This document shows, one piece after another, positions 13,856 to 29,993 of a stretch of 32,167 nt of DNA. Under the pieces are notes generated by a model, which ran no database searches, was not told the DNA's origin, and saw only the letters and a program-made list of their open reading frames with translations. The translations under genes were made by a program, and so were the position numbers. This stretch comes from an uncultured Bifidobacteriaceae bacterium (lineage in GTDB: Bacteria > Verrucomicrobiota > Verrucomicrobiia > Limisphaerales > UBA11358): assembly GCA_964538105.1 (NCBI GenBank), contig CAZIFP010000002.1:1-32167 (forward strand), given 5' to 3'. The stretch's first letter is position 1. Every line of letters begins with the position of its first letter.

Positions 13856-13893
13856 ATTCAGTCTGGAGGCAATTATGGCAGTCAGTGTTAAAT

Positions 13894-15261: not shown

Positions 15262-15434
15262 GCTTCCAGTCTCCATGACGAAACACACTTTTTGCCTCAT
15301 GCGCGTCCCAACCACTGACGGCATTGCCGTTGTATGCCCGGCAAATGAAAATGAAGCTGTCCACCCCGGCAGACGCATCCCAAGTGGAGCAGCATCCGTC
15401 CCAATCCAAATCTCGCCCAGCATCAACAAATGGC

Positions 15435-16307
15435 TTACTTCCGCTGGCGACGGAACAGCATCAGTGACAGCCCGCCTAGACCAACCAAAGCCAGCGTGGC
15501 CGGTTCGGGCACCGCTTCCGTGTATTGATCCAGGGTCGTCAAGTTAACTTGGGCTGTTGCGGAATAGGTCCCGGAAGCGGTCTGCGCAGTTCCACCATTA
15601 ACATAATAGGTTCCACCTTGAAGCGCCCCTGGAGCAGCCAAGTCGCCATAAGCAGTCTGACCCAAGCCGGAGTCGCCCGTGCTGGCAACGTCGAAATCGA
15701 AAGTTGAGCCCAGATTTGATAAATCACTCAACGGGACGGTGAGGGTGAGAACAGTCGGGTTGCCTCCCGAGCCATTGCCTATCGTCACGGTTCCTTCGGG
15801 CTGATTTTCGACTACCGTCCAGCTACCGCCACTGAAGACAGCGTCGAACCATCCAAAGGTGTAGGGACTGCTGCCACTTGTGTATATTCCTATCATATCC
15901 GTCATTCCGCCAAAACCACTGTCAATGGATATGGCGCGAGTCTGTGATCCTCCGCTCCAAGCGTTAAATGCATTACCGAGGGTCGTGCCGTTGGCGGAGG
16001 TGTCGCCACCGGCGGAAGGACTGCCGGAGGTCATGACCATGGCATAATCAAAACCGCCTTGAGACGTTGCGTTGCCCTGTGGTTGGAGAGCGATTGAGAT
16101 GTAGAGATTGTTCGCGTCATTGGCGATGGTTGCGGAGTTGATTTGGCGCCCCTTGTTGGCACTCCCCTGCCCCGTGTCATTGCCGGTATAGGTAAAGCCG
16201 CTTATGCCCGTCTGATTTATGGTATCGGCGCACATCGCCGGATAAACGGCATAAGCGAGCGCGGCCAGTCCGACTGCCAATCCTTTGATTTGTTTTCGAA
16301 TGTTCAT
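15435..16307 (-). CDS. PEP-CTERM sorting-domain protein (G/S/T-rich secreted protein)
   Basis: 290 aa with ATG at 16307 and signal peptide MNIRKQIKGLAVGLAALAYAVYPAMCA. The C-terminus VPEPATLALVGLGGLSLMLFRRQRK is a textbook PEP motif plus TM helix plus basic tail. Confidence 0.85.
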   Translation of the reverse strand: MNIRKQIKGLAVGLAALAYAVYPAMCADTINQTGISGFTYTGNDTGQGSANKGRQINSATIANDANNLYISIALQPQGNATSQGGFDYAMVMTSGSPSAGGDTSANGTTLGNAFNAWSGGSQTRAISIDSGFGGMTDMIGIYTSGSSPYTFGWFDAVFSGGSWTVVENQPEGTVTIGNGSGGNPTVLTLTVPLSDLSNLGSTFDFDVASTGDSGLGQTAYGDLAAPGALQGGTYYVNGGTAQTASGTYSATAQVNLTTLDQYTEAVPEPATLALVGLGGLSLMLFRRQRK

Positions 16308-16388
16308 AAATTTACAGTTTTTGAGTTTAAATGTTCTCTTTTGATGGGGACATCTGCCCTCATAATGCGTGAGGTAGCAAAATTTTCA

Positions 16389-16412
16389 TAGCCCCCAAAA
16401 ACTGGGGGATTT
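16389..16412 (-). promoter_or_regulatory. Box copy a: AAATCCCCCAGTTTTTGGGGGCTA (gene-sense reading)
   Basis: Intergenic, with the core edge 84 nt upstream of the PEP-CTERM gene ATG (16307). CCCCCA can pair with TGGGGG, leaving a 5-nt loop. Confidence 0.6.
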
Positions 16413-16521
16413 GAGATGTCTTAAAGCAGCGCCACATGCCTTTATGGTTGTGACGTCAAGCCAGGGCGCCGGGGGCGGTTCAATTTGGTGGGATCATGTC
16501 GTTGCCAAAAAATGAAGGTGG

Positions 16522-16609
16522 GGCGCGTCACTCCGTGCGCGCCGGCTGACAAAAAAGCATCGGAAACGCACGTTTTTCTCCATGCGCGGCGGGCAGAGGA
16601 CTGCCCGCC
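16522..16609. repeat. GC-rich hairpin (REP-like) sequences in noncoding DNA
   Basis: ggcgcg-N10-cgcgcc lies at 16522-16543 and ggcgggcag-agga-ctgcccgcc at 16588-16609 (9-bp perfect stem). Translations such as RVTPCAP and RRAEDCPPC resemble the spurious peptides produced by GC-rich palindromic repeats in related phyla. That resemblance is from memory and was not searched. Confidence 0.45.
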
Positions 16610-16676
16610 CTGCCAGCTTTGTCCCGTTGTTTGTCAACGACATGATCCCGCAATCTGGCGCTCTTGCCCGGCCGGC

Positions 16677-16709
16677 AAGAAAAACGGCGCGTCTTGCGGC
16701 GCGCCGTTT
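16677..16709 (-). terminator. Intrinsic terminator-like hairpin downstream of the LysR fragment
   Basis: The 10-bp GC-rich stem aaacggcgcg (16682-16691) / cgcgccgttt (16700-16709) has an 8-nt loop. On the minus strand it is followed by TTTTTCTT. It starts 21 bp after the stop at 16730. Confidence 0.5.
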
Positions 16710-16729
16710 GTCTGGCTTCATCATGCCCA

Positions 16730-17311
16730 TCAGGACACGTAGCGGGTCACGTCCATGCTCCACGCGCTGTAGCCGGTGAGGCCGCCGAAGGGATGCTGCG
16801 GATGGCAGATGAAGGCCAGCGGCTCGCGGCGCGTGATGTCCAGGACCAGTCCGGGCCGGTGCTGCGGATGAATGGTCAGGCCCAGATCCGCCTCCATGTT
16901 TTCCACGGCGTCATGCACGCCGGCGGGCGTGCCGTAACTGACCGTCACCCGCGCCGCCGGGTGCGCGGCCCGGAACCGGCGGAGCCGGGCGGGCAGTTGA
17001 TGGAAACCGATGGCGAAGCAGACGGCCAGTTCAAATTCGTTGGCGGCCAGTTCATGCGCCCGCAGCAATTCCGCGTCCAGCCGGTGGAAGATCCCGGTCA
17101 TCTGCGCGCAATACGGGTGGCAGGCCCGGCCGTCCGGAGTGAGCCGGATCTCCCGGCAGCGACATTCGGCCAGCTCGGTCTGCAATTCGTGTTCCAGCAA
17201 CGCGAGCTGGCGGCGGGCGGCCTTCCGGGTGAGGTGCAGGCGGCGGGCGGTGGCGGTGAGGCTGCGGGTTTCGGCAAGGTCGCAAAACATCCCAAAGGCC
17301 TCCAATTGCAT
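16730..17311 (-). pseudogene. Truncated, degenerate LysR-family transcriptional regulator
   Basis: From the ATG at 17311 it reads MQLEAFGMFCDLAETRSLTATARRLHLTRKAARRQLALLEHELQTELAECRCREIRLTPDG, which fits a LysR wHTH but is degenerate. It is only 194 aa against ~300 expected and stops inside the effector-binding domain. Local GC content is visibly higher than the flanks. Confidence 0.55.
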
Positions 17312-17370
17312 CAGCGATATTATGCAGGCGGGCGGTGGCGTCAACCGGTTAATACGCCTGGGGCAATCCA

Positions 17371-17600
17371 ATTTGGCTGCGCATCCTGCTGGTGGATGGC
17401 GGCTACAACGGCGAAACGTTCGCTCAATGGGTCAAAGGACTCCGCCCCACAAACTGGCCGTCGTCGTCAAACGCTCCGATGACACCTCTGGTTTCAAAGT
17501 CCTGCCGCGATCACGAAACCACTGGAACCAGCGCCGTGGCGTGGATTTACATCGCCATGATCCAGATTCAACTCCGCGACCGGCCTGATTCCTCATCCAT
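17371..17600 (+). pseudogene. Remnant of the 3' end of an IS5-family (DDE) transposase gene
   Basis: Frame A reads LLVDGGYNGETFAQWVKGL, frame B reads KLAVVVKRSDDTSGFKVLPR, and frame A resumes with RDHETTGTSAVAWIYIAMIQIQLRDR. Together these match the IS5-type C-terminus (ADGGY.GE.F..WV ... VVKR....GF.VLPRRWVVERTFAWL..RRLSKDYE..SEA.IY.AMI.LMLRRL). The match requires two frameshifts and loss of the RWVVERTFAWL block. The N-terminal two-thirds are absent. Confidence 0.55.
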
Positions 17601-17619
17601 CATGATTTTCAAACAGAGT

Positions 17620-18495
17620 CTAATCCGCCGGCGTGTGCTGCGCCAGCCAGGCCATGTCCGCATTTTGGGTATAAGTTACTCCCCCGGTTCCCGGATACTT
17701 TGTGTATGTGACCGGAACACGGAACGCGCTGGTGGTCCATTTATGAACCTCCGCATGGCCGTCGGCAAAGGAAATTCCGCAACCGCCGCCCAGATAGCTT
17801 GAGGGCACCTCGATCAGTGTTCCCGTTCCGCCCGTTGCCCGCGGATCGTCGTAAAAGATCCCGTCGTCAATGCTGTCCGGGTGCTCATTGATAAACACCC
17901 AGCTCGAACTTGGGCCTGGATTCATCAACTGGCTCATCTTCCCCGCCACGAAAAATGGACTAAGAGTTGAAAGCGAGGCCGGCGGTTTAACACCACCACC
18001 GGCCACCCCAACGGGACCGCCAACGGCCGCATCCATGGCGACGCTCCGGGCCCGATGGTGAACAATTGCGCCAAAAGTCAGGGCCCGCTGCAGGGGAGAT
18101 AGAAAGACATCCCCCGGCGAGGTGTAAATTGCAGATTGACCGGCACAATACTGGGCCAGCTTATTGGTCGCAAGGTATGCCACGTTTGTGTTGGCCGTGG
18201 CGGTGCCCCAATCCATGTGACATTGCCCGGGAATCCACGACTCAACTCCGTTGACGGCTGCCGACTGGTCGGCATTGAGCACCAACGTGTCGCTGTTGTC
18301 CCCGGCATACATATACCACGCCAGCATCAACTGCTTTTTATTGCTCATGTCCATCGTTATCTGCGCCTTCGTCTTGGCGGCGGAGAGGGCTGGCAATAAC
18401 ATGGCGGCGAGGATGGCAATGATGGCAATCACCACCAACAACTCGATCAAGGTGAAGCCGCTGGGCTTGGCATTATTCTTTGTTTGCAAATACAT
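17620..18495 (-). CDS. Prepilin-type N-terminal cleavage/methylation protein, H-X9-DG family-like (variant without the His)
   Basis: The ATG at 18495 gives [45 protein letters not shown], a class III signal with a G|FTLIELL site. The C-terminus is [18 protein letters not shown]. The ORF-track GTG at 18513 is less likely. Confidence 0.85.
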
Positions 18496-18563
18496 GGCAG
18501 ATTTCCCGTCCACACCAAAGCACGAACTCTGGCGTGGAACGGGTGGCGGTGATCATTTATTAA

Positions 18564-20468
18564 TCAAAACGGCTGGATCAACTGGAAGAAGCTAGCGCCG
18601 GCGCCCACCGGGTAATTCGTCGCGTTCTGGCCATCGGTGTTGGTCAGCTCCAGCCACGCGCCCGTGGTCAGGTTTGTCTTCGTCTGCAAATAGACGCCCG
18701 GAAGACCCAGCCAGGTGATCGGAACTATCCCGGCTGATTTTGATCCGATGGCCAGATTGCCGAACGCCGGTTCCTGAACCATGCTGCCGAATGTATCCTC
18801 CGGCAGGACATAGCTCCCTGTGGACCGGATATAACGGACGTGATTGGTGCCGCCGAGAGCCTCAATGGGAAGGCCGTTGAAGGTATATTGATAGGAAAGC
18901 TTCAACGGGTATCCCCCCGGAATCGATCCCGACGGAACCGGCACCGTGATTGTATAGACCTCGCTGCCCACTGGATTGTTTGCCATCTGGAAATTACCCA
19001 ACGGGTTGCCCGCCGGCGCGTTGGTCCACGGATCAAACGAGTAGTATCCCACCGAATTGGTAATATCCATGCCGTTAAGATAAACATTGTCCGTGCTGGG
19101 ATTGAATACTGACAAATCCGTTCCCACCGCGTTGGTCATGTTCACAGTAAAGGTCACCATGGTGGGGGCCGGCAGCACGGTGTAGGTTGATACGTCGTCG
19201 AAATAAACCGTGGGCAGGGTCAAATTGCTTCTGGTTACACTCGGCATGGCGATTTCCCGGTTTTGATTGCCGCCAAGAACTGAGGGAAAGCCAGGGTAGG
19301 TATGGGTGGGATTGTTTTCGTAGTTGCCATTGACGTAACCAAACTTGAATTGTGTCGTGGCGCCGTATCCATTGGTGATAAATATTGTCGTGCTGTAGAT
19401 GTTGGTGTTGGCGGCGTTGGGATTATTCGTGCAGGTGTTCAAGCCGGTTGTATCCCAATTGTTGAAATCCCCGCTCAAGCGAATTTGTTGACTGCCCATT
19501 TCCCCGTCCAAAACTTCACGGGTCATGTCCACCGAGAAGGTGAACTGGTTTGTTCCAATTGGCGCGAAGGGCTGGTCGCTGAAAAAGACAATCGGATACA
19601 CGGTGTTGGTGGTCAGAAAAAAGAAGCGGTTTTCGCTGTTTTGCTGGATTCCGTTAACGGGGCTAGGGGCTTCGTATACGGCAGATGGCTGGATTCTATA
19701 TTTGAATTGTCCATTCTGCCCTGCTGAACCGGCAATGGGATTGGCGAGATTTCCGACATATACATTGGAACTCACCAAACCAAACTGGTTGGTTCTCAAA
19801 ATGGTGGGATCATTGGTCAAGGTGTTGCCGCTGGGGGTGGTGCCCTGGCCGAACCCGAAATTATTGCCGCTGCCCAAGCTGCCGTCGACTTCCACCGTTT
19901 GGGTCGCGGGATTGAAAGTCCCAAGGGCGATTTGCTGCGACATGTCCACTTGGAACCAAGGGTTGGCAGTGGTAATTCCTTGGGGGGATGAACTGTTGGG
20001 CCCTTGATCGGCGAAGAACTGAAGGGGCAAAGTCAGACTCTGCTGCCCGCTGCCTGCGGGCAAAAGCGTGACCCGGTTGTCGTTGTAAGTCGCCGTTGTT
20101 TCATAGCCGCTTGCGGCAGGGGCGCTGGCGCTAATCCCAGGGGAATAAAACTTATATTGCATTTGGGCACCGTTGGTCTGAAACGTATAGTCAACCGTTA
20201 CCATATAAAGATTGGTATTGACGCCAGCGGGATTGTTGGTCAGCAGGATGCCAACGCTATTGATATTCGTATAGGTAGGAGGGGTTCCATCGGGACCAAA
20301 CGTTCGCACATAAAGCGAACTCACCCCGTTGGTGAAGTAGCCATTTTGAACCTGATACGTCATGTCACACTGAAAGGTGACAAGTGTGTCTGCGTAAACC
20401 GACCCGGCGGTGCCCAGCATAAGCCCGGCAAACAACGTGGACGAAAGAACGGCAGTTATGTTCTTCAT
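18564..20468 (-). CDS. Secreted protein with four tandem ~125-aa CBM20/CBM48-like beta-sandwich modules and a C-terminal FFQL module
   Basis: 634 aa with signal peptide MKNITAVLSSTLFAGLMLGTAGSVYA. Module heads repeat as VTFQCDMTYQV, WFQVDMSQQI, FTFSVDMTREV...RLSGDFNNWDT and VTFTVNMTNAV...VYLNG, resembling starch/glycogen-binding modules (VTF.V.M ... G.FN.W). The C-terminus is YLQTKTNLTTGAW...ASFFQLIQPF. Confidence 0.7.
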   Translation of the reverse strand: MKNITAVLSSTLFAGLMLGTAGSVYADTLVTFQCDMTYQVQNGYFTNGVSSLYVRTFGPDGTPPTYTNINSVGILLTNNPAGVNTNLYMVTVDYTFQTNGAQMQYKFYSPGISASAPAASGYETTATYNDNRVTLLPAGSGQQSLTLPLQFFADQGPNSSSPQGITTANPWFQVDMSQQIALGTFNPATQTVEVDGSLGSGNNFGFGQGTTPSGNTLTNDPTILRTNQFGLVSSNVYVGNLANPIAGSAGQNGQFKYRIQPSAVYEAPSPVNGIQQNSENRFFFLTTNTVYPIVFFSDQPFAPIGTNQFTFSVDMTREVLDGEMGSQQIRLSGDFNNWDTTGLNTCTNNPNAANTNIYSTTIFITNGYGATTQFKFGYVNGNYENNPTHTYPGFPSVLGGNQNREIAMPSVTRSNLTLPTVYFDDVSTYTVLPAPTMVTFTVNMTNAVGTDLSVFNPSTDNVYLNGMDITNSVGYYSFDPWTNAPAGNPLGNFQMANNPVGSEVYTITVPVPSGSIPGGYPLKLSYQYTFNGLPIEALGGTNHVRYIRSTGSYVLPEDTFGSMVQEPAFGNLAIGSKSAGIVPITWLGLPGVYLQTKTNLTTGAWLELTNTDGQNATNYPVGAGASFFQLIQPF

Positions 20469-20546
20469 AATTAAATATATTGGTTATTGGTTTGGGTATA
20501 GGTGTTCTTACTTGCGTTACAATAAGCCCGAACCTTGTGTCCCGCC

Positions 20547-20569
20547 TAGCCCCCAAAAACTGGGGATTT
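20547..20569 (-). promoter_or_regulatory. Box copy b: AAATCCCCAGTTTTTGGGGGCTA
   Basis: Intergenic. It lies 18 nt after the GH13 stop (20584), and its core edge is 81 nt upstream of the ATG at 20468. Confidence 0.6.
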
Positions 20570-20583
20570 CGTGGAATCTGAAT

Positions 20584-22677
20584 TTAGTTTGGCGGCGATG
20601 CTTTGCCAGTGCCGACGCAGCGGAAACGTGACTCGAACCCGGCGTAAAATGTTTTTCGGGAATCGGCGGCGCGCGCCGTGTCGCCGAGATGCACGGTGAC
20701 CAGCGTGAGCGGCTGGAAGCCGGGGCTTTCCGGTGTGAACGTCATCTCGTCGCCTGCGGCCGTCCAGGTAAACGCGCCTTTCACCGGCGGCTCTGTTGAG
20801 AACGCACGTTCGACGCTGGCATTGTTCATAGGCTGACTGAAATGAATCACCATCGGCGCGGTTGGCAGAATTTCGCTGGCGTCGTGTGCGGGTGAAATGG
20901 CGGTTACCACCGGATCGAGCGGACGGATTTCGGATTTGGCGACGAAAATTTTTGCTGACGTGCCCGGCACGACAATGGGCGGTGTTTGCCCGCCGGCCTG
21001 CGCGGTAACAGTTTCCTTTTCGTCAAGCACGTTGACCAATTTTGTTCCCGCCGGGTATGTCGCCGGACATGCCGGCAGGATTTGGTTCGTCTCCGCCGTG
21101 TTGAAAACCACGAACGCTTCCTGCGGGCCGAGCCGCCGCGTGTAGGCGAACAGGCCGGGACCGGTGGCGTCGCTCCACAGATTCGATTGAACGCCGGTTT
21201 GCAGCTCCGGATACAACCGCCGGAAATTATTCAGCTTGGCGACGAGCTGAAAAAGCGGATGCGTCATGTTGAAGTTGTCGCCGAGCGACGGTCCCCACTC
21301 GAATTGTCCGGCGAACATGTCTTCCCGATCGAATGGATCCTTCTTTCCATTGAAGGCCTGCTCCGTGCCGTAATACAAACATGGAATGCCGCGCGCGGTG
21401 TAGAGAAAAACCAGCGCCACCTTGAGCCGTTCCAGATTATTACTCGCGCCTTTGTCGCTCAAAAAGCGGGGCTGGTCATGATTGTCGAGAAATGTCACCA
21501 GCCGCGTTTGCGCCGACGGATCATAATCGCGCGCCACCGCCGAGTAGTGATCTTGAAGCTGTTTTGTATTGCCGGTCGCGGTGGCAAACACGCTGTTGAT
21601 TTTGAAATACAGCGGATAGTCCACGGTCGAATCCAGCTTGAACGGGCCGCCGTCTTTTGCGCCGACATAGGAACTGCACTTGGCGTCGGCGTGATCCAGC
21701 ACTTCGCCGAACATAAAAAAATCCGGCCTGCCGTGCGCCGCCGCGAACGCACGGACGGCCGGACACCATTCCTGCCAGAATCCCATCTCGACATGTTTGA
21801 CAGTGTCAATGCGGAAGCCGTCGAAGCCCGCTTGCTCGATCCAATACTCGTAAATTTTCTCCATCTGTGTCCGCACATAGGGCGTTTCGGTGCGAAAATC
21901 ATCGAGACCGCTCAGTTCGCCCAGCTCTACCTGGGTTGGATCATGGTAATCATGGATGAAGCCGTTGTTGTGAAACAGATTTGTGAGCGACGGATTGGTG
22001 GCATTGAGATCAAATGGCGGCGGATATTGTTTGGCGGGATCGCGGAACCGCAAATGGTATCCATCCGGCGGATATTTGAAAGCCGGGTAGCCCGGATCGG
22101 CGCTGTCCACGAGGTTGCCGCCGTGATTCACCACGATGTCGTCAATGACCAGGATGCCGCGAGCGTGAGCCGCTTTAATCATGTGCTGCAAATCCGCCAG
22201 CGTGCCCCAGTGCGGATCCACCTTGTAAAAATCCACCCCGGCGTAACCGTGAAATTCGCCGCGCTCATTCAACACGACCGGCGAAATCCAGATGGCCGTC
22301 GCGCCGAGCGATTTGATGTAATCCAGTTTTTCCTCGATGCCCTTGAAATCGCCGCCGTGAACGGACGTTCCCCGGTGGCCGGCCGGATCGTAATTGCCGT
22401 CGGCATTGTCGTTTGACGGGTCGCCGTCGTAAAAGCGGTCGGTGATGATTTGATAAATGCTTTGCGCCTGCCAGAAACTGTTGGAAACCGATTGGGCTTC
22501 TGTTTGTGCCGCGAGAAAAACAGACGCCGCGATGATGAACGAAGCACCAATCTTCAAACTCGCTTTGCGCGGGTTTGGGAGCTTTGTTCTTGAAGTTTCT
22601 CTGGATGTTGGAGCCTGGTGTTTGGAACTTTTGCCTTCCAATTCTTTCCGCTGAAAACTTCGGAATGGCCCGATCAT
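20584..22677 (-). CDS. GH13 alpha-amylase-family glycosidase with C-terminal Ig-like domain
   Basis: GH13 regions are GGDFKGIEEKLDYIKSLGATAIWISPV, VVNHGG, GFDGFRIDTVKHV, FGEVLD and FLDNHDQPRF. The C-terminus resembles an SbsA/Big_5 Ig domain (PVVTAISPAHDASEI...). The ATG at 22677 overlaps the upstream stop (ATGA). A 40-aa basic leader precedes the signal peptide, and an alternative TTG at 22557 would start directly at MKIGASFIIAASVFLAAQTEAQS. Confidence 0.9.
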   Translation of the reverse strand: MIGPFRSFQRKELEGKSSKHQAPTSRETSRTKLPNPRKASLKIGASFIIAASVFLAAQTEAQSVSNSFWQAQSIYQIITDRFYDGDPSNDNADGNYDPAGHRGTSVHGGDFKGIEEKLDYIKSLGATAIWISPVVLNERGEFHGYAGVDFYKVDPHWGTLADLQHMIKAAHARGILVIDDIVVNHGGNLVDSADPGYPAFKYPPDGYHLRFRDPAKQYPPPFDLNATNPSLTNLFHNNGFIHDYHDPTQVELGELSGLDDFRTETPYVRTQMEKIYEYWIEQAGFDGFRIDTVKHVEMGFWQEWCPAVRAFAAAHGRPDFFMFGEVLDHADAKCSSYVGAKDGGPFKLDSTVDYPLYFKINSVFATATGNTKQLQDHYSAVARDYDPSAQTRLVTFLDNHDQPRFLSDKGASNNLERLKVALVFLYTARGIPCLYYGTEQAFNGKKDPFDREDMFAGQFEWGPSLGDNFNMTHPLFQLVAKLNNFRRLYPELQTGVQSNLWSDATGPGLFAYTRRLGPQEAFVVFNTAETNQILPACPATYPAGTKLVNVLDEKETVTAQAGGQTPPIVVPGTSAKIFVAKSEIRPLDPVVTAISPAHDASEILPTAPMVIHFSQPMNNASVERAFSTEPPVKGAFTWTAAGDEMTFTPESPGFQPLTLVTVHLGDTARAADSRKTFYAGFESRFRCVGTGKASPPN

Positions 22678-24941
22678 TTCGTCTGCGTTTCCAATATCAC
22701 CGTCATTTTACGGACGGGATCGCCGGACGATTTGTCAACCGGCGTGTTCGTGTCAACGTTGATCACCACCGTGAAATGACGGGTGACCGGATCGTATTGG
22801 ACATCGTCATCTTCTCCGAGCAGCACCGTTGCCTTCGGCGCCGACGGCGCGTAGCCGTGCAGCACGACGGATTTTTCATTGGCCGCCAGCACGACGCCGA
22901 CCGTCAACTTGCCGGCTTCATCGTGGAGCGATTCAATCCGTTGTCTGCCCGTGCCGACAAATTTGTCCTTGTCGCCGAGAAAAGCGATGCCACTTTTGCC
23001 GACCGGCGCCACGACATAAAACGCGCTGGCGTCCTTGCCCAGCGGCGCGGAGAATTTGGCGCGGGCATCCAGCCGTTGAGACGCGCCGGAAAAATAATCA
23101 TAAACGTAAGCCGGCCCGTTCACACCGAGTTCGCCGAGCGTGAAATGGACTTTGTCATCCGGCGTCTTGGGCCGGTTGAAAGCGAAGACATATTCGGTTT
23201 TGATTCCGTCACGGTCCGTGTAGGTGCTGGCAGTCATCGGCACCGCTTTTTTCTCCGCGTCGGCGACGTAGCTGCGATCCAGCGGCACGATGGACGCATC
23301 GGGTTTGACAATCACCCCGTCGGCGCGGACAGCCTGAAAAAGATTGGCCTTGTTTTCGGCGCCCATCGCATCACCGGTGCCAACCGGCCCTGCGGAAAGC
23401 GTGGACAGCAGGACGTTGTTGATTTCGCCGCTCATGTAAACATCCGCCCACGGCCAGATGCCCATCGAGGAGGCCAGACGTGAGGTGTAGAGAAAATCAT
23501 TCCACTTGTTGGTATTGAACCGGTCGCCGCTGGTGCGGATGCTCGTCAAATTTTCGTAGCGGCTGCCCTGCAGAAAATAGCATGGATACGGCATGCAATA
23601 TTGCATCGTGATGCCCTGTTCCTGGCAGGCACGCGCCATATTGTCGAGAAAGGCCGCACCAGTATCCACGTTGCTGCTGAACGCCGGGGAATAGGTGTAG
23701 ATGCGGTCCAGCCAGTCCTGCTCGTAGGTGGCAATGCCGGAAGCCTTCATGTAATCCGCAATGCTGTCCCACCATTTCGGATCCACGGCGGCGACGCCGG
23801 AAATTTCATAGCGTTGATGATATGGGCTGGCCGGGTCAATCCAGCGGTTGTGGGTGATGAGCGGCAGACCGACTGTCTTTTGAAAGGCATCCAGTCCGTT
23901 CGGGAAAAGATCGGTATGCGCCCTGTATTCCAGCAGGCCGCCGTAGCGGTTCCATTCGCCCGCCGGCAGCCTGTTCGATTTTTTCTCCTTGCCCGGCTTG
24001 CCATCGGCATCCGTGGTCGTCTTGTAATACCACCACGAATCCAGTTGCAGGTAGCGGATGGGAATCTGCTCCTGGCGATAGCGCTCCACCAGCGACTGGA
24101 GCGTGCCGGCGTAGCCTTTGTCAAAATCGTAATTGTAATAATAGTTTGCGCCGTTGTCGGTCCAGTAACCCAGATATTTCAGCACCGCATCCGCGTCATC
24201 GGCCGGCCGCTTCGAACCTTGCAAATCAACCAATGCGCGGCCCCACAAATCCCAGGTTTTGTTGATTCCCTTGCCGAACGCCACGATCGTTTGCTGCGTG
24301 AAACCCGCCGGCAAATTCCGCAAATTTGGATTGAAGCCGCTGGCCACCTCCTTCCGGCCATCCCCAATCATGCTGGCGACCATGAAATGCGACGCGGGTG
24401 AAATGACGAAGGCGTCGACGTCGTCATCGAACAGCAGCCACGGCGTCGAGATTTCGGTGGTGCTGAAATCCGGCGGCGCAAATTCATGATGACCGTAGCT
24501 GAAAATGTGCAACGACTCCGGCAGCTTGGTGAACGCCGGGAAAGCGGCGGGCGGCGTTTCCTCCGCCGCGCCACACGTCTGCGAAAACAGCGCCAGCGCC
24601 TTTTCATTGTAAATCCGGATCTGGCCGCTCATCAGCTTTTGTCCATCCTGCCACTCAAAGGCAATCTGCTGATAGTCGCCAATCACATCACGACCTTGAC
24701 TGGCTGCCACATTTTTGAGGGACTGATTCACGCTGCCGCTGAAATTCCACGCCGGCTGTTTGGCGGTGAGTTGATAGCTGCCAGTGCTTGCGTCCAGTCG
24801 CAGGGACACACCGCTGGCGGAACTGATGACCGCCGCTTCGCAGCGATTCGCCGCCAACATCAGCGCAAAGGCAGCGAAGAAAGGTTGGAAAATAGACTTC
24901 CAAACCCGGCGACGACAATCCTGTGAAGATGAATTCATCAT
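22674..24941 (-). CDS. Secreted putative glycoside hydrolase, (beta/alpha)8 + beta-sandwich, clan GH-D-like, family unassigned
   Basis: 755 aa with ATG at 24941 and a signal peptide ending LAANRCEA. KYLGYWTDNGANYYYNY and IRYLQLDSWWYYK recall the FGWC.WDAFY / IDDGW strands of GH27/GH36/raffinose-synthase-type enzymes. The C-terminal Greek-key-like tail reads PAYVYDYFSG...FYVVAPV. I cannot place it in a named family by eye. Confidence 0.45.
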   Translation of the reverse strand: MMNSSSQDCRRRVWKSIFQPFFAAFALMLAANRCEAAVISSASGVSLRLDASTGSYQLTAKQPAWNFSGSVNQSLKNVAASQGRDVIGDYQQIAFEWQDGQKLMSGQIRIYNEKALALFSQTCGAAEETPPAAFPAFTKLPESLHIFSYGHHEFAPPDFSTTEISTPWLLFDDDVDAFVISPASHFMVASMIGDGRKEVASGFNPNLRNLPAGFTQQTIVAFGKGINKTWDLWGRALVDLQGSKRPADDADAVLKYLGYWTDNGANYYYNYDFDKGYAGTLQSLVERYRQEQIPIRYLQLDSWWYYKTTTDADGKPGKEKKSNRLPAGEWNRYGGLLEYRAHTDLFPNGLDAFQKTVGLPLITHNRWIDPASPYHQRYEISGVAAVDPKWWDSIADYMKASGIATYEQDWLDRIYTYSPAFSSNVDTGAAFLDNMARACQEQGITMQYCMPYPCYFLQGSRYENLTSIRTSGDRFNTNKWNDFLYTSRLASSMGIWPWADVYMSGEINNVLLSTLSAGPVGTGDAMGAENKANLFQAVRADGVIVKPDASIVPLDRSYVADAEKKAVPMTASTYTDRDGIKTEYVFAFNRPKTPDDKVHFTLGELGVNGPAYVYDYFSGASQRLDARAKFSAPLGKDASAFYVVAPVGKSGIAFLGDKDKFVGTGRQRIESLHDEAGKLTVGVVLAANEKSVVLHGYAPSAPKATVLLGEDDDVQYDPVTRHFTVVINVDTNTPVDKSSGDPVRKMTVILETQTK

Positions 24942-24967
24942 TAATGATTATGCGCAGTGGATGACGT

Positions 24968-24993
24968 CTGGCCAGCCCCAAAAAACTGGGGTA
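24968..24993 (-). promoter_or_regulatory. Box copy c: TACCCCAGTTTTTTGGGGCTGGCCAG
   Basis: It sits in the 82-bp gap between the prepilin-like stop (25024) and the glycosidase ATG (24941). The core edge is 34 nt from the ATG. Confidence 0.6.
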
Positions 24994-25023
24994 ATTGCAC
25001 GACATAGGTAAGATTCAATTGCT

Positions 25024-25890
25024 TTATTGCTGGCTGCTGGTCCGTTGTTGCAGCCAAGTCATGTCATCGGGCGAATTCTTGCCGAGGTCCGGACAGGGAT
25101 TCACCCTTGCGACGGGTGCTTTGGTGTTTACGTCCAGCCATTGCTTGATTTCCGAATGGCCATCGGCGAAAGACAATCCGGCGGCCCCCCCATGAGTCGA
25201 AGCGGGCAGTTCGACCCAGTTGGCAGCGGAGCCTCCCTGCATGGGCACCTTAAAATAATCGTCATCAATGCTGTCCGGGCATTCGCAGATCAACACCCAC
25301 GTCTTCGCAGGGCCGGGATTGGCACAGTCGCTGGTTTTCAAAAATCTGCGCCAGCCGGGATTATCTTTCCCATTGAAATTCATTGTGTCGCCCACGAAAC
25401 CATTCATCGCGTAGCTCCGCACCCGCGGACCCCACCGGCCGGGATAAATGTCCGCCGGACACTTGAAAATTCCAACGTTCTTGACCACATACGGACCGAT
25501 CTCGCCACCGGTCAAATAAATGGTATTTGTATTTTCGGTGCTGGGATATTTTGGGGGCAGATCCCAACTCATATTGCCGGTGACCCAGGCATTGAAGTTG
25601 ATGATGTTTCCGGTGTTATCGGGAAATGCCTGATGGTTGTCATCGGCATACATTTCGATCGCCAACTGCACCTGCTTGAGATTGTTCATGCAGTATATTG
25701 TCTGCGCCTTTTGCTTTGCCTTGCTCAAAACCGGGAGCAACATCGCCGCCAGAATGGCGATGATGGCGATGACAACGAGCAGTTCGATGAGTGTGAACGC
25801 CGCCCTCGTCGTTCCGCAGCCTGGCCGGGAAACCCGTTGGGGCGATTCCCCGGGGAAAATGCTCCGATGTTTCTTCTGATGTAGGTTCAC
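25024..25890 (-). CDS. Prepilin-type N-terminal cleavage/methylation protein with C-terminal H-X9-DG motif
   Basis: GTG start at 25890. The N-terminal part reads ...[45 protein letters not shown]. The C-terminus [23 protein letters not shown] fits H-X9-DG exactly (H, 9 residues, DG). Confidence 0.85.
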
Positions 25891-25920
25891 TAACTCTAAT
25901 TTATGCGAGAAGTTTCCAAA

Positions 25921-25944
25921 CTGACCAGCCCCAAAAACCTGTGG
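25921..25944 (-). promoter_or_regulatory. Box copy d (degenerate): CCACAGGTTTTTGGGGCTGGTCAG
   Basis: It sits in the 81-bp gap between the response-regulator stop (25972) and the prepilin-like start (25890). The core edge is 38 nt from the start. The left arm is degenerate (CCACAG for CCCCAG). Confidence 0.5.
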
Positions 25945-25971
25945 TAGTGGAAACGGCTGCCGGCGCGAACC

Positions 25972-26607
25972 TCACATGCTTTTCCGGCGGCCGAGAAATT
26001 TCAAAGCTGCCTGGGTGCGCGAACGGACGTGCAGCTTGGTGTAAATGTGCCGCAGATGCCAGGTCACGGTCTCGATGCTGATGGAAAGCTTGTCCGCAAT
26101 TTCCTTGTTTGCGCAGCCTTGGGACAGCAGTTCCAGCACCTCCTGTTCGCGCCGGGAAAGATTCTGATCCTCCGCCGGCGCCGGCGCCGGCTCGCGAAAC
26201 ACGCCGAGGACCTTGCGCGCAATCTCGCTCGACATCGGCACGCCGCCGGCGTGGACTTCCCGTATGGCCTGCAAAATCTGCTCCGGCGCCACGCGTTTGA
26301 GAATATAGCCGCTTGCCCCGGCACGCAGGGAGTTGAAAACTTTTTCGGTGTCGCCATAGACGGTGATCATCACCACCTGCGCCGATGGCAGCAGTTCCTT
26401 GATGCAGGCGGTGCATTCGATGCCCGAGCGGTCAGGCAGGTTGATATCCATGAGAATAACCTGCGGTGCGGCCTTCGGAAGCGTGCGCAGCGCCTCCTCG
26501 GTGTTCTTGCAGGCCGCGACGCACGAAAATTCCGACGACGACTTCAGCAGCCATTCCAAACTGCGGCGGATACCCGCGTCATCCTCAACTATCGCCACGG
26601 TGATCAT
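25972..26607 (-). CDS. NarL/LuxR-family response regulator (REC + LuxR HTH)
   Basis: 211 aa. The receiver reads MITVAIVEDDAGIRRSL...VILMDINLPDRSGIE. The output domain LSRREQEVLELLSQGCANKEIADKLSISIETVTWHLRHIYTKL is a GerE/LuxR HTH. Confidence 0.9.
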   Translation of the reverse strand: MITVAIVEDDAGIRRSLEWLLKSSSEFSCVAACKNTEEALRTLPKAAPQVILMDINLPDRSGIECTACIKELLPSAQVVMITVYGDTEKVFNSLRAGASGYILKRVAPEQILQAIREVHAGGVPMSSEIARKVLGVFREPAPAPAEDQNLSRREQEVLELLSQGCANKEIADKLSISIETVTWHLRHIYTKLHVRSRTQAALKFLGRRKSM

Positions 26608-26688
26608 TTTCTTTTTTTACGGAACAATTTTAACAAGGCAATTGATTGCAGAAAAAATATGGGACAGGTTTTTCGGGTTGTTATGCCG

Positions 26689-29600
26689 TCACTCATACTG
26701 CCTGGTCCGCCGCGCGGCAAGCGGCAAAGACAAGCTGACGGAAACTCCGCCGGCCGGCCGGTTGACAATTTCGCACCGGCCGCCGATCTGGGCCATTCGC
26801 TGGCGCAAGTTGATCAGACCGTCCGCGTCTTCCTTTACCGTCGGTGACAGGCCGCGTCCATTGTCTTCAACGCCGATGAACAAACGGCTTTTTTCCTCGA
26901 CGGAAATTTTGACGCGGACTTCGGTTGCGCCGGAATGTCTTACCACGTTGGTCAAGGCTTCCTCGAAAGCCAGAAAAAGATTGTGCCGTTGTTCCGAGTT
27001 CAAGGGCTGATCGGGTTCCGTTTCCTGCATTTCCAAACGGCAGCGGATGGCCGTCGGCTCCAGAAAACCCTGCGCGTAGCGACAGAGATAACCGCCGAGC
27101 GAATTCACCGAGTCGTCCCGCGGGTTGACCGCCCACACAATTTCATCCAGCGCCATGACCAGATCGCGGCTGCGCTGGACAATTCGGTCCAAAGCCTCCT
27201 GCTTGCGGGTCGGGAGCCGCGCCGGATCCTGAAGCAGCCCGCCAAGCAGCCCAATCTCGGTCAGGCCCGCGCCGAGGTCGTCGTGCAAATCCCGGGCGAT
27301 GCGCGACCGCTCGCGCTCCAGCTCATGCTGGCGTTCCAATCGTTCCAGCCGGCGATGCATCCGCCGACGCATGGTAATCACAACTGTGAAGGACAACCCC
27401 GCCATCACCAACAAACCTGCGCCGCCGCGGAACCAGGCCGTCTGATAGAAAAACGGATTCACCTTTACTGAAAGCAGCGCGCTGTCGTCGCTCCAGACGG
27501 AATCGCTGTTGCAAGCCATGACGTGAAAAACATACCGGCCCGGCGGGACATGGCGGTAGATGGCTTTTCTTTCCGCGCCAGCATCGTTCCATCCGCTTTC
27601 CAGTCCATCAAGGCGGTATTTGAACCGGACATCCGCCGCCGAACCGAGGCTCAATCCGGCGTAATAGAATTCGAGATCCCCGCGACCGGGACCGACCTTG
27701 ATTTCCGGCGTGGCGGCGTGGCCGTCTTCAATGGTTTCATGAGCCGTCAGGACTGCGCCGACGTTCACCGGCCCAACTCGTTTGTCATCGGCCCACATAT
27801 CTTCCAGCACCACCGTCGGCGGCGAGGGATTGATATGAACTGCTGCCGGATTCACCGTCGCCACGCTGTTTGCCATGGCAAAAAACAAGGAGCCGTCCCG
27901 CCCGCGCCAGCAGTTCGGCTGGTAGACAATCGCGCTGCCAATCGTCTGCAAACCGTCCGACCGCCCATAGACACTCACCGGCAGTTCGTCCAATTTGCCG
28001 CGTTCGAATTGTGCCAGTGCGGCGGCGGGGATGCGGGCGATGCCGGCGCGCGTTCCCAGCCACAGATTGCCAGCGGCGTCGCCCAAAATCTGAACGATGC
28101 TGTCTGAAGGCAGCCCGTTCTTCATCGTATATCGGAAAAATTTGCCGTTGCTCCAGTGCAACAAACCGCCTTGCTCCGTGCCCGCCCACAAGCTGCCGTC
28201 TGGAGCCGCCCACAACGCCCAGATTCGTCCCAGCGAATTCCGATCCGGCGGCGATAGCGGGACAAATTGTTTGCCGTCCCAGCGCATGAGCAGTCCGTCC
28301 AGTGTTCCCGCCCAAACCGTGCCGTCTGCCGCCTCCGCCAGCGCCGTCGGGTGACCGCCTGTGCTTTGCGAGGCGTATTCAAAGGAAAGATTTCCATTCG
28401 TGACGCTGATGATGGAAGAAAGTGTTCCGACCCAGAGGCGGCCATCGCGGCATGGCAACAGCAGACGCGGATAACTCTTCAGTTGCGTCTCCGTGGCGAT
28501 TGGCTGCAACTGTCCGGCTTCTGACATCAACAGGCCGATGCCCTGCGCGCCAATCCAAACCCGTCCGCGCGCGTCGGCCACAACGCAACTGTCTTGCGTG
28601 CGTCCGGATCCTTGCAAAACGATGTTCGTGCAGACGCCGTTCTCATAACGGCCTACGATGCCGCTGTGCGTGCCAATCCACACGGCACCGTGAGCGTCTT
28701 CGCACACGGTGTTGATCAGGCTGTCACCCAACCCTTGTTCCTTCCCGATGATCCCGAATAATCGCCTCCGCAACTGCACCAAGCCGCCCCGTTCGTAACC
28801 CGTCCAGATGTTTCCGTCGTGATCCTCATAGGCAAAGTGAACCACATTGCTGGGCAATCCATCCCGCGTGGTCAGGCGCTGGAAGGCGCCGTCCGCGGCA
28901 ACGTGGATCAATCCCAGATCACCGGCGCCGGCCCACAAACCGCCTTCGCTGTCGCCCTGCACAAAGTGCAACGAAGTCCTTCCGCCGAGTTCGCGGTTCC
29001 AGCCATCGGATTCGGACAGCCATTGCCGTCCGGCGCAACGCCGCATCCGGCCGTTGGCTTCCACCCAGATAGTGCCGCCGCCGGAGGGAACAATTCTCTT
29101 CACGTCCAGCACGGCCTCGCCATTGGTCGGTGTCATCACTTCAAAATGATTCGTCCGCCACACGGCCAGGGTCTGGTCCGTGCCAATCCAAATTCGTCCC
29201 TGCGCGTCGGCGGCCAGCACTTTGAGGATCTGATCTTCCAGCCCTGCCGTCAGTGCGAGGGTTTTGGTTTCCTGGCCGCTCCAGATGCCAATTTTGTTTT
29301 CGCTTTGCAAATACCAAATCCGGCCTTCGGCATCAGCGCATTGCTGACCCTGCGACGAAACATCCGGCGGCGTCACCGTCTGCCAGTTCCATTGCTCGCG
29401 CGTTTTTTGGCCCGCCAGCAATCTCCCGTCGCCATAGATAAAAATGACCGTGCCCGGCGCCGACCACAACAAGCGGGCGGGCCGGTTGGTGCTGTTGAAC
29501 ACCGAGCGGAAACCTTGTTTGTCCCACGTGGTCAAGCCGCCATCAACCATGCTGATCCAAAGCGTGCCTGCCTGGTCCACCATGAGCCGGGGCACGCCCC

Positions 29601-29883
29601 ATTTCTGTGAAAATACCGGCGTGTTCGCGGAGTTGTATTTGGCGAAGCGCGTGCCATCGAAACGCAGCACGCTGCCAAAGAGCGTGCCGACCCATAAATA
29701 GCCTTCCGGGGTTTGCGCGACATCCGTGACCGAGCTTTCGGTCAAGCCTTCATCCGCACCCCAGAGTTTGACAACATAATCCTGGCCTGCGGAATCGTCT
29801 ACATTTGCACACACAAATGGTGGCAGTGCCGGGCTGAGGAACAACCCCAGCCAAAAGAGGAGAGTTCTCGCGGCTGGTTGCAT
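26689..29883 (-). CDS. Sensor histidine kinase with periplasmic two-component-regulator propeller repeats + Y_Y_Y domain, TM helix, HisKA_3 and HATPase_c
   Basis: The ATG at 29883 gives MQPAARTLLFWLGLFLSPALPPFVCA; the ORF-track start at 29901 is TTG. The N-terminal ~750 aa carry many repeats of the type W.GT..GL (LWVGTLFG, IWIGTDQ, VWIGTHSG, LWAGTEQGGL, LWLGTRAGI). FKYRLDGLESGW is Y_Y_Y-like. The TM segment is GLLVMAGLSFTVVI, the H-box is ERSRIARDLHDDLGAGL, and the ATP-binding part is NVVRHSGA...VEDNGRGL. Confidence 0.9.
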   Translation of the reverse strand: MQPAARTLLFWLGLFLSPALPPFVCANVDDSAGQDYVVKLWGADEGLTESSVTDVAQTPEGYLWVGTLFGSVLRFDGTRFAKYNSANTPVFSQKWGVPRLMVDQAGTLWISMVDGGLTTWDKQGFRSVFNSTNRPARLLWSAPGTVIFIYGDGRLLAGQKTREQWNWQTVTPPDVSSQGQQCADAEGRIWYLQSENKIGIWSGQETKTLALTAGLEDQILKVLAADAQGRIWIGTDQTLAVWRTNHFEVMTPTNGEAVLDVKRIVPSGGGTIWVEANGRMRRCAGRQWLSESDGWNRELGGRTSLHFVQGDSEGGLWAGAGDLGLIHVAADGAFQRLTTRDGLPSNVVHFAYEDHDGNIWTGYERGGLVQLRRRLFGIIGKEQGLGDSLINTVCEDAHGAVWIGTHSGIVGRYENGVCTNIVLQGSGRTQDSCVVADARGRVWIGAQGIGLLMSEAGQLQPIATETQLKSYPRLLLPCRDGRLWVGTLSSIISVTNGNLSFEYASQSTGGHPTALAEAADGTVWAGTLDGLLMRWDGKQFVPLSPPDRNSLGRIWALWAAPDGSLWAGTEQGGLLHWSNGKFFRYTMKNGLPSDSIVQILGDAAGNLWLGTRAGIARIPAAALAQFERGKLDELPVSVYGRSDGLQTIGSAIVYQPNCWRGRDGSLFFAMANSVATVNPAAVHINPSPPTVVLEDMWADDKRVGPVNVGAVLTAHETIEDGHAATPEIKVGPGRGDLEFYYAGLSLGSAADVRFKYRLDGLESGWNDAGAERKAIYRHVPPGRYVFHVMACNSDSVWSDDSALLSVKVNPFFYQTAWFRGGAGLLVMAGLSFTVVITMRRRMHRRLERLERQHELERERSRIARDLHDDLGAGLTEIGLLGGLLQDPARLPTRKQEALDRIVQRSRDLVMALDEIVWAVNPRDDSVNSLGGYLCRYAQGFLEPTAIRCRLEMQETEPDQPLNSEQRHNLFLAFEEALTNVVRHSGATEVRVKISVEEKSRLFIGVEDNGRGLSPTVKEDADGLINLRQRMAQIGGRCEIVNRPAGGVSVSLSLPLAARRTRQYE

Positions 29884-29934
29884 GGCGCGAGTATGAAACA
29901 AACGACAGTTTCATCGCCACAACAAAATCAGATG

Positions 29935-29958
29935 CCCCAGTTTTTGGGGGCTGGTCAG
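29935..29958 (+). promoter_or_regulatory. Box copy e: CCCCAGTTTTTGGGGGCTGGTCAG
   Basis: It lies in the 110-bp divergent region between the kinase start (29883, minus) and the GH127-like ATG (29994, plus). It is in sense orientation for the plus-strand gene, with the core edge 43 nt from the ATG. A TATATT hexamer follows at 29972-29977. Confidence 0.6.
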
Positions 29959-29993
29959 GCTGCTGAACTTCTATATTAAGAACCAGAGATAAA

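Follow-up and report, generated by a model that had tools for sequence, protein, structure and literature searches.

Free-living Verrucomicrobia are abundant polysaccharide degraders of soil and peat, and, to our knowledge, their transcriptional control is almost entirely uncharacterized. Among described systems, Bacteroides hybrid two-component systems (HTCS) sense oligosaccharides, and dimeric regulators of the GerE family (DosR/DevR, and those acting at lux-type boxes) bind dyads of about 18-20 bp with G/C-rich arms and an A/T centre, overlapping the -35 element in a class-II-like manner. The consensus arms for DosR are GGGAC/GTCCC, and LuxR solos lack a receiver domain. Here we analyze a 32,167-nt stretch of DNA (contig CAZIFP010000002.1 of assembly GCA_964538105.1, GTDB lineage Verrucomicrobiota, Limisphaerales; hereafter the window), which carries repeated copies of a box, CC[C/A]CAG-T5-GGGGGCT, upstream of genes for glycoside hydrolases (GH), prepilin-like proteins and a PEP-CTERM protein. 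The placement, conservation and distribution of this box suggest that it is likely to be the operator of the NarL/FixJ-family response regulator encoded in the same cluster (25972-26607), forming one unit with a sigma-70-type core promoter.

The engineered high-affinity site of NarL is TACCCCT-AA-AGGGGTA, activating NarL sites of this 7-2-7 type lie at -40..-49 (napF) and -38..-47 (yeaR), and at some promoters NarL represses (PMC4549865). Like E. coli NarL and NarP, the window regulator combines a receiver domain (REC) with a GerE helix-turn-helix (HTH), and NarL is among its top structural and NCBIfam matches. The box resembles NarL sites in being inverted around an A/T centre, and the position predicted for it, about -36 to -53, is similar to those from which NarL activates at napF and yeaR. 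In the left half, TACCCCA/TACCACA, 5-6 of 7 positions agree with TACCCCT, while the right half, TGGGGGC, agrees with AGGGGTA/TGGGGTA only in the G-run. An earlier, first-pass annotation of the window had not recognized the box as a described operator; this stands insofar as searches of the literature and of Rfam returned no match, although the half-site is recognizably NarL-like. The box differs from the 7-2-7 class in its spacer, which is 5 bp rather than 2 bp (GTTTT), with an invariant T-tract. The recognition helix of the window regulator has T-W...R where NarL has K-V...K, and, unlike nitrate sensing by NarX/NarQ, the signal is presumably a glycan perceived through a Reg_prop/Y_Y_Y kinase.

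The locus is also reminiscent of Bacteroides HTCS, in that a periplasmic Reg_prop beta-propeller/Y_Y_Y sensor adjoins clustered genes for glycoside hydrolases and surface proteins, presumably its targets, and in that each glycan cluster has one private regulator, with several paralogous systems across related contigs. Unlike in an HTCS, kinase and regulator are separate proteins, the kinase is of the HisKA_3 type, and the output domain is GerE/NarL-type rather than AraC-type. None of the 20 open reading frames (ORFs) of the window has a SusC/SusD-like Pfam match, and the targets, unlike those of a Bacteroidetes polysaccharide utilization locus (PUL), include prepilin-like (N_methyl/DUF1559) and PEP-CTERM proteins. 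With DosR and lux-type boxes the window box shares a dyad of G/C-rich arms around an A/T centre, placed at the -35 element, and DevR is among the regulator's closest solved structures; the sequence of the box and the signals differ.

Five oriented boxes in the window

According to the first-pass annotation, five palindromic boxes lie in intergenic gaps of the window, all in one orientation relative to the downstream gene, with none in 1-16 kb. Upon re-reading the window, we found the positions and sequences of all five to be correct, and each box is intergenic and oriented toward the next gene (five of five; boxes a-e, Table 1). Chance alone would be expected to give ∼0.1 copies in a window that holds exactly five. 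Four match CCCCAGTTTTTGGGG with no more than two mismatches, at 16393-16407(-), 20551-20565(-), 24977-24991(-) and 29935-29949(+); dinucleotide shuffles gave a mean of 0.11 such matches, and none of them reached four. Box d (CCACAGGTTTTTGGGGCT) has three mismatches to CCCCAGTTTTTGGGG and is a diverged copy, validated by synteny: the orthologous positions in other genomes read CCACAG/CCCCAG-TTTTT-GGGGGCT. We also scored the window with a weight matrix built solely from 62 independent metagenome sites, window sites being excluded. The five boxes scored 35.6-41.5 bits, compared to 6.7 for the next window position and 13.9 for the best of 20 shuffles. Given this gap, there are exactly five boxes, and the first 16 kb is indeed devoid of them. 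The palindrome is a short one: its arms (CCCCA/TGGGG), on either side of an axis at T8, span only 5 bp, and the left arm is mostly CCACA in orthologous sites.

Conservation of the box across genomes

To see where the box occurs elsewhere, we scanned one genome per prokaryotic species for exact matches to CCCCAGTTTTTKGGGGCT, which returned 73 tiles; the comparison covers 8 kb around each exact match. Twenty-two of the tiles, from ∼14 genomes of Verrucomicrobia subdivision 3/Limisphaerales, contain 30 exact matches, and tblastn placed all verrucomicrobial matches either within a conserved cluster or before an orthologue of a cluster gene. The order of this cluster is kinase, regulator, prepilin-like, 755-amino-acid (aa) protein/GH13, 634-aa protein/pseudopilin and PEP-CTERM/GH28/GH28; on the other side of the kinase, and divergent from it, is a gene for either GH127 or a 1300-aa GH28-like protein. 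Matching under relaxed criteria added diverged copies, for a total of ∼40 sites in the ∼14 genomes, each facing the downstream gene, and the composite common to these genomes is aaAT-box-CT[A/G]G[G/C]CAG, followed after ∼15 nt by TAnAnT. Dozens of metagenome contigs contain the same box, geometry and cluster, always including the Reg_prop/Y_Y_Y kinase and the NarL-type regulator, and the kinase is co-conserved with regulator and boxes in all genomes examined. Among the genomes compared by footprinting, in which the proteins are ∼70-80% identical, alignments of orthologous promoters show a box that is 100% identical, upstream flanks and spacers that have diverged, and semi-conserved -35, -10 and start codon positions. 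The earlier proposal of a local regulon defined by an oriented cis-element is thus upheld, with the box kept at the same promoters in many genomes and confined to the kinase/regulator cluster.

A short G+C-rich imperfect inverted repeat, present in several copies within 14 kb, might alternatively be a dispersed repeat (such as a repetitive extragenic palindrome, a miniature inverted-repeat transposable element or a recombination site) with no regulatory role. In the tiles of the cross-species scan and in the footprinting, the latter a check put forward by the first-pass annotation, the sites are promoter-proximal, oriented and conserved rather than randomly placed. Only ∼20 bp are shared between copies, and the flanks are unrelated. 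All of the ∼100 copies are intergenic, face a gene start and keep a fixed distance to the -10 element, and copies occupy orthologous positions despite ∼70% protein identity. Moreover, there are few copies per genome: a 4.6-Mb contig (CAWDIX010000002) holds just two exact ones, both at genes of the set, one beside the kinase and the other 170 kb away before the PEP-CTERM orthologue. We give this explanation almost no chance of being correct.

Outside Verrucomicrobia, matches to the CCCCAGTTTTTKGGGGCT 18-mer were set aside, being either terminators of the ordinary kind (AGCCCC...GGGGCTTTTTT) or single matches due to chance. In rumen Bacteroidales metagenome-assembled genomes (MAGs; L007, L012, L019, L023, L026, L031 and L070), the same 18-mer sits in another well-conserved context, ttataaaaagcCCCCAGTTTTTGGGGGCTgcaaatatacgg, which looks like an ordinary hairpin or terminator beside a conserved gene, unrelated to the verrucomicrobial box. 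Two further contigs carry the complete verrucomicrobial cluster with 70-80% protein identity under other names, one labelled Candidatus Sulfopaludibacter (Acidobacteriota; L045/L060, DATJNM010000060.1) and the other 'uncultured bacterium' (L006/L044, CAVPSH010000003.1). These MAGs are probably mis-binned or mislabelled.

Box and recognition helix

A metagenome scan with the regulator protein as query yielded 80 loci, ranging from 97% to 49% identity. Among orthologues (at least 75% identical), a box with no more than three mismatches lies 10-220 nt past the stop codon in 33/46 loci, or 37/46 with degenerate copies included; among paralogues (49-63% identical), only 1/33 has a box. The region divergent from the kinase contains a box in 11 of the 13 regulator-ascertained loci with enough upstream sequence. 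Because this set of loci was not selected on the motif, it provides an unbiased profile. The 37 sites give tTA-CC[A>C]CAG-TTTTT-GGGGGCTGG, with the highest information at T8-T11 and G13-T18. All of the ∼60 boxes in the regulator-fetched loci face a gene. The prepilin-like homologue is the commonest target (24/60), and the others include the 1300-aa GH28-like, 755-aa, PEP-CTERM and 634-aa families, a GH63-like enzyme and adhesin-like repeat proteins. In three loci the regulator gene itself is a target.

We grouped the 80 loci by the recognition helix of the regulator, aligned to NarL TVKVHVKH. The box is present in 35/44 loci with a helix of the ETV[T/A]WHL[R/K]H type, the misses being contigs of 1-3 kb, and in 0/31 loci (∼270 kb) with other helices. 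In L122, the regulator is only 58% and the kinase only 30% identical to those of the window, the helix is of the window type, and the box is present. Conversely, a clade with the helix SIVTVTWHL[Q/R]H, 75% identical overall, has an altered box, C[T/C]ATAG[T/G]TTTTG[A/C]GGGCT (eight sites in five loci); three of these loci were fetched to test the helix/box prediction. What tracks the variant box perfectly is an E->V substitution immediately preceding the helix. We also considered Arg->Gln in the helix as sole cause of the G->A change in the box and rejected it, as P0002/L156 has Arg yet carries the variant box. Taken together, box presence appears to follow the recognition helix rather than overall identity, and the co-variation, which is at the level of clades, is suggestive of recognition. 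The proposal that the box serves a dimeric DNA-binding protein, with the neighbouring NarL-type regulator as candidate, gains from the way in which both presence and sequence of the box track the helix.

In L158, where the helix is TVIWHLKH, no box was found past the regulator gene. Upstream of a 766-aa gene and a GH28 gene, this locus has a long A/T-rich inverted repeat, CTTACTCCTAATC...GATTAGGAGTAAA, at 1081-1172; this repeat may act as a terminator or as an operator of another kind.

Paralogous pairs of Y_Y_Y/HisKA_3 kinase and NarL-type regulator have repeated boxes of their own, past the regulator gene and at nearby promoters, with two to three boxed promoters each. One such box is TATGCCA-TT-TGGCATA, with the helix TIKVHLEH, and another is TACGTCA-TT-TGGGGGA, with the helix TVRTHLGH; the respective loci are listed in Table 1. 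Both boxes are inverted heptamers with 7-2-7 spacing, and the proximal half-site is ∼22 nt from a -10-like element, as in the window box. Together, these boxes look like a family of private operators.

Promoter geometry

A -35-like hexamer, T[G/A]G[G/T]CA, abuts each of the five boxes, starting at the last T of the box, and a -10-like TAnAAT follows 16-17 nt after the hexamer, in the five window copies as well as in ∼100 related sites. This layout, with 16-18 nt between the hexamers and an activator site abutting -35, is that of a sigma-70-type promoter, and it is seen as consensus-level matches both in the five copies and in the unbiased 37-site profile. A generic promoter scan independently lists TGGCCA-16-CATAAT for box c. 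Assuming that transcription starts ∼7 nt past the -10 element, the box would span roughly -36 to -53.

In two gene families, the start codon lies 6-10 nt past the -10 element. The ATG of the 755-aa ORF (24941) is only 6 nt and the GTG of the prepilin-like gene (25890) 10 nt past it, and this spacing is conserved, as ATGAACCC, in ∼30 related loci too (e.g. L077 10664-10720). These distances suggest that the 755-aa and prepilin-like transcripts are leaderless in this verrucomicrobial lineage. The ATGAACCC arrangement (window 24939-24952 and 25888-25905) leaves no space for a ribosome-binding site.

The first-pass annotation had offered, as an alternative to a protein-binding site, a hairpin in the 5' untranslated region (5'-UTR). 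More generally, the box might be a nucleic-acid hairpin, either an RNA stem-loop in a 5'-UTR or read-through transcript (attenuator or stabilizer) or an intrinsic terminator. CCCCA and TGGGG can indeed pair, box a folds at -12.4 kcal/mol (z = -2.4), a scan for terminators picks up box e on its reverse strand, and the same 18-mer is an ordinary terminator in other phyla. However, as the box is located upstream of the -35 and -10 elements, it falls outside the 5'-UTR, and in two genes the distance from it to the start codon is only 32-36 nt. Neither strand of the verrucomicrobial copies has a T-run after the stem. Box d is unfolded, and boxes b, c and e fold no better than shuffles; z runs from -0.3 to -2.4 for the four boxes other than d, and from -2.4 to +1.4 for all five. 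Position 3 is A in 27/37 unbiased sites, while its partner G13 is G in 35/37, so that the change from C goes uncompensated. In addition, the T-tract of the loop is as conserved as the stem, and the window matches no Rfam family. These data argue against the hairpin, which we consider very improbable.

Alternatively, the box might be a promoter component, an extended -35 or UP-like element for a polymerase with a dedicated alternative sigma factor, for instance an extracytoplasmic function (ECF) sigma encoded elsewhere, and the regulator no more than a syntenic gene. The most invariant bases (T8-T11, G13-T18 and G19-G20) run into the -35 hexamer, the spacing to -10 is fixed within 1 nt, and degenerate copies lose the left arm while keeping the right half plus CTGG. 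On the other hand, there is no sigma or anti-sigma gene in the conserved cluster, and the TATAAT-like -10 is of the type used by housekeeping sigma rather than ECF factors (GGAAC-like -35, CGT-like -10). The box also tracks the helix of the regulator outside synteny (L122) and changes with it, and for paralogous regulators this place is taken by other boxes. We regard a dedicated sigma factor as quite unlikely. A sigma-54 reading of CTGGTCAG... was also discarded, as inspection by eye revealed no TTGC at the required 11-12 nt.

Between the divergent kinase and GH127-like genes lies box e, at only 21-33 nt from the start codon of the kinase, which is either TTG 29901 or ATG 29913. Read on the minus strand, window 29901-29960 shows TGACCA (29957-29952), the box as a 17-nt interval, and then A/T-rich sequence. 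The kinase/regulator operon may thus have a promoter that uses box e as its spacer, with the possibility of autoregulation. In L111, L112, L115, L117, L156 and L157, a box is found directly upstream of the regulator gene.

These considerations bear on whether the same regulator might use the box for repression. In one version, (unphosphorylated) regulator sitting on the -35 element blocks polymerase until the signal arrives; in a mixed version, it activates GH127 and represses the divergent kinase/regulator operon. The site overlaps or abuts -35, the distance from the kinase start implies that the kinase promoter must overlap box e, and NarL sets a precedent for repression at some promoters (PMC4549865). 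Given how close the kinase start is, the protein bound at box e might, in addition, bring the kinase/regulator operon under repression or autoregulation. By analogy, however, the weak -35 hexamers (TGGCCA, TAGGCG, TATGAA), such as are found in activator-dependent promoters, and a position like that of the NarL sites that activate napF and yeaR both favour activation. Repression, in either version, strikes us as unlikely.

Proposed mechanism

Activation by the cluster-encoded regulator would proceed as follows. The Reg_prop/Y_Y_Y kinase (26689-29913) would detect an extracellular or periplasmic glycan fragment and phosphorylate the regulator. A regulator dimer would then bind TACC[C/A]CA-GTTTT-TGGGGGC, with the box centred near -44/-45 and the promoter-proximal half-site ending one base before the weak -35 hexamer. 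Bound in this position, the dimer would recruit or stabilize RNA polymerase in a class-II-like fashion, switching on five units: PEP-CTERM-GH28-GH28, 634-aa protein plus pseudopilin, 755-aa protein plus GH13, the prepilin-like gene and GH127. The motif, its fixed geometry at promoters, its conservation, its restriction to these genes and its co-variation with the recognition helix are observed; from these we infer that the regulator binds the box directly and activates instead of repressing, where transcription begins and what kind of signal is sensed.

Several observations weigh against this proposal. Between 9 and 13 orthologous regulator loci have no box past the gene, although most of these are short contigs or rearranged clusters. 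The co-variation of helix and box is clade-level, and hence shared ancestry could mimic co-evolution; moreover, R->Q tracks the box imperfectly (P0002/L156 pairs R with the variant box). Half-site spacing is 5 bp, compared to 2 bp in NarL-type sites of high affinity, and TGGGGGC departs from the exact complement of TACCMCA. Conservation is strongest in the right half plus GCTGG, which overlaps -35, so contacts with polymerase or sigma could explain part of the conservation. The promoter elements, too, are called only by resemblance to a consensus, in a phylum with poorly characterized promoters. Finally, activation and repression are indistinguishable from sequence alone.

The best-supported reading is a small, conserved, apparently glycan-responsive regulon of uncultured soil Verrucomicrobia of subdivision 3, and hence a familiar kind of system rather than a new class of element. 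Our literature searches found no earlier description of the motif, of a verrucomicrobial promoter motif or of a Y_Y_Y two-component system in Verrucomicrobia. Three features would go beyond the routine: the 7-5-7 spacing with its invariant T-tract, the apparently leaderless targets, and the consistent co-control of prepilin-like/DUF1559 and PEP-CTERM proteins with carbohydrate-active enzymes, in a family of paralogous systems with one private box apiece. If true, half-sites 3 bp further apart than in any characterized NarL-family site would imply either a different dimer geometry or composite recognition of a half-site together with sigma region 4.

The analysis yields a defined candidate operator with its probable regulator and sensor, together with a small portable regulon (GH28, GH127, GH13, pseudopilin-like and PEP-CTERM genes). 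It also provides a promoter model for an uncultured lineage, with -35/-10 elements and probable leaderless starts, and genetic parts for inducible expression. The box should allow co-regulated glycan-utilization genes to be predicted from metagenomes, and it would tie the enigmatic, hugely expanded prepilin-like/DUF1559 proteins directly to carbohydrate degradation. A broader and quite tentative idea is that soil and peat Verrucomicrobia of subdivision 3 run their glycan clusters by split pairs of Reg_prop/Y_Y_Y kinase and NarL-type regulator, each with its private operator joined directly to the -35 element in promoters that are often leaderless. In this scheme, which may possibly hold, the core targets are prepilin-like (DUF1559) and PEP-CTERM proteins rather than SusC/D, and the clusters would be a counterpart, in the Planctomycetes-Verrucomicrobia-Chlamydiae (PVC) group, of the PUL/HTCS of Bacteroidetes.

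Genes of the cluster

Table 1. Boxes, core promoters and genes of the window, and loci of paralogous systems
Feature	Position	Strand	Details
Box a, CCCCAGTTTTTGGGGGCT	16390..16407	-	before PEP-CTERM gene; 35.6 bits; orthologous promoter boxed in 7 genomes
Box a core promoter	-35-like TATGAA 16390-16385; -10-like CATTAT 16367-16362	-	
Box b, CCCCAGTTTTTGGGGGCT	20548..20565	-	before ORF 18564-20468; 39.7 bits; kept in 7 genomes, flanks diverged
Box b core promoter	-35-like TAGGCG 20548-20543; -10-like TTATTG(T) 20525-20519	-	
Box c, CCCCAGTTTTTTGGGGCT	24974..24991	-	before ORF 22674-24941/GH13 pair; 41.5 bits
Box c core promoter	-35-like TGGCCA 24974-24969; -10-like CATAAT 24952-24947	-	ATG 24941
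Box d, CCACAGGTTTTTGGGGCT	25927..25944	-	directly 3' of regulator stop, 5' of prepilin-like gene; 38.1 bits
Box d core promoter	-35-like TGGTCA 25927-25922; -10-like CATAAA 25905-25900	-	GTG 25890
Box e, CCCCAGTTTTTGGGGGCT	29935..29952	+	92-bp kinase/GH127-like divergent region, facing GH127; 35.9 bits
Box e core promoter	-35-like TGGTCA 29952-29957; -10-like TATTAA 29974-29979	+	ATG 29994
NarL/FixJ-family response regulator	25972..26607	-	Pfam Response_reg and GerE HTH; recognition helix SIETVTWHLRH; proposed box binder
Sensor histidine kinase	26689..29913	-	Pfam Reg_prop repeats, Y_Y_Y, HisKA_3, HATPase_c; start TTG 29901 or ATG 29913
Box a target operon	11282..16307	-	PEP-CTERM 15435-16307; GH28/beta-helix 13894-15429 and 11282-14047; Pfam
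Box b target operon	17620..20468	-	634-aa protein without family match 18564-20468; prepilin-like N_methyl protein 17620-18513
Box c target operon	20584..24941	-	755-aa protein without family match 22674-24941; GH13 alpha-amylase-family enzyme 20584-22677
Box d target	25024..25890	-	prepilin-like protein (N_methyl and DUF1559)
Box e target	29994..32033	+	GH127-like glycoside hydrolase; Pfam GH127 catalytic and middle domains
Paralogue loci, box TATGCCA-TT-TGGCATA	L133, L142-L145 (e.g. L133 1344-1361)		
Paralogue loci, box TACGTCA-TT-TGGGGGA	L134, L147, L152, L153 (e.g. L152 6138-6153)		

The closest solved structures to the regulator are VraR, NarL and DevR, and its best NCBIfam match is NarL, under the equivalog cut-off (142 versus 250 bits). 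Its gene adjoins the boxes in the window and in nearly all related loci. Judging from their spacing, the genes appear to be organized in five transcription units with one box at the head of each. The 755-aa and GH13 genes overlap by 4 nt, and the order PEP-CTERM-GH28-GH28 behind a box recurs in other genomes. The GH127-like gene has a weak NCBIfam match to aceric acid hydrolase, and its orthologues follow a box in other genomes.

Some gene assignments of the first-pass annotation call for revision. The label of housekeeping DNA for 1-16 kb does not apply to 11.3-15.4 kb, where two GH28 genes probably belong to the box a operon. The '4x CBM' (carbohydrate-binding module) and 'glycosidase' labels, given to ORFs 18564-20468 and 22674-24941, could not be confirmed: these 634-aa and 755-aa targets, like the 1300-aa GH28-like protein, have no Pfam or NCBIfam family match. 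As listed, the two GH28 ORFs overlap by 154 nt (13894-14047). Homologues align with the 921-aa GH28 ORF only from residue 53-104 on, and its real start is therefore probably downstream of 14047.

A LysR ORF at 16730-17371(-) was considered as a binder of the box and rejected. It has just 213 aa with an incomplete substrate domain, carries a frameshift in the closest relative (L018 3778-4348) and is absent from the cluster in all other genomes. Being truncated and missing from related clusters, it is not a candidate regulator, and it is probably a decaying insertion.

Two blocks of the 5'-UTR downstream of the promoters are conserved in seven genomes, at window ∼16320-16352(-) and ∼20497-20505(-). 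The first, GATTCTCCCCCATCAGGAAGAGAAAC, precedes the PEP-CTERM gene and has a small TTCTC/GAGAA hairpin inside, and the second, AGAACACCT, precedes the 634-aa gene. These blocks could have a translational role or be sites for a small RNA.

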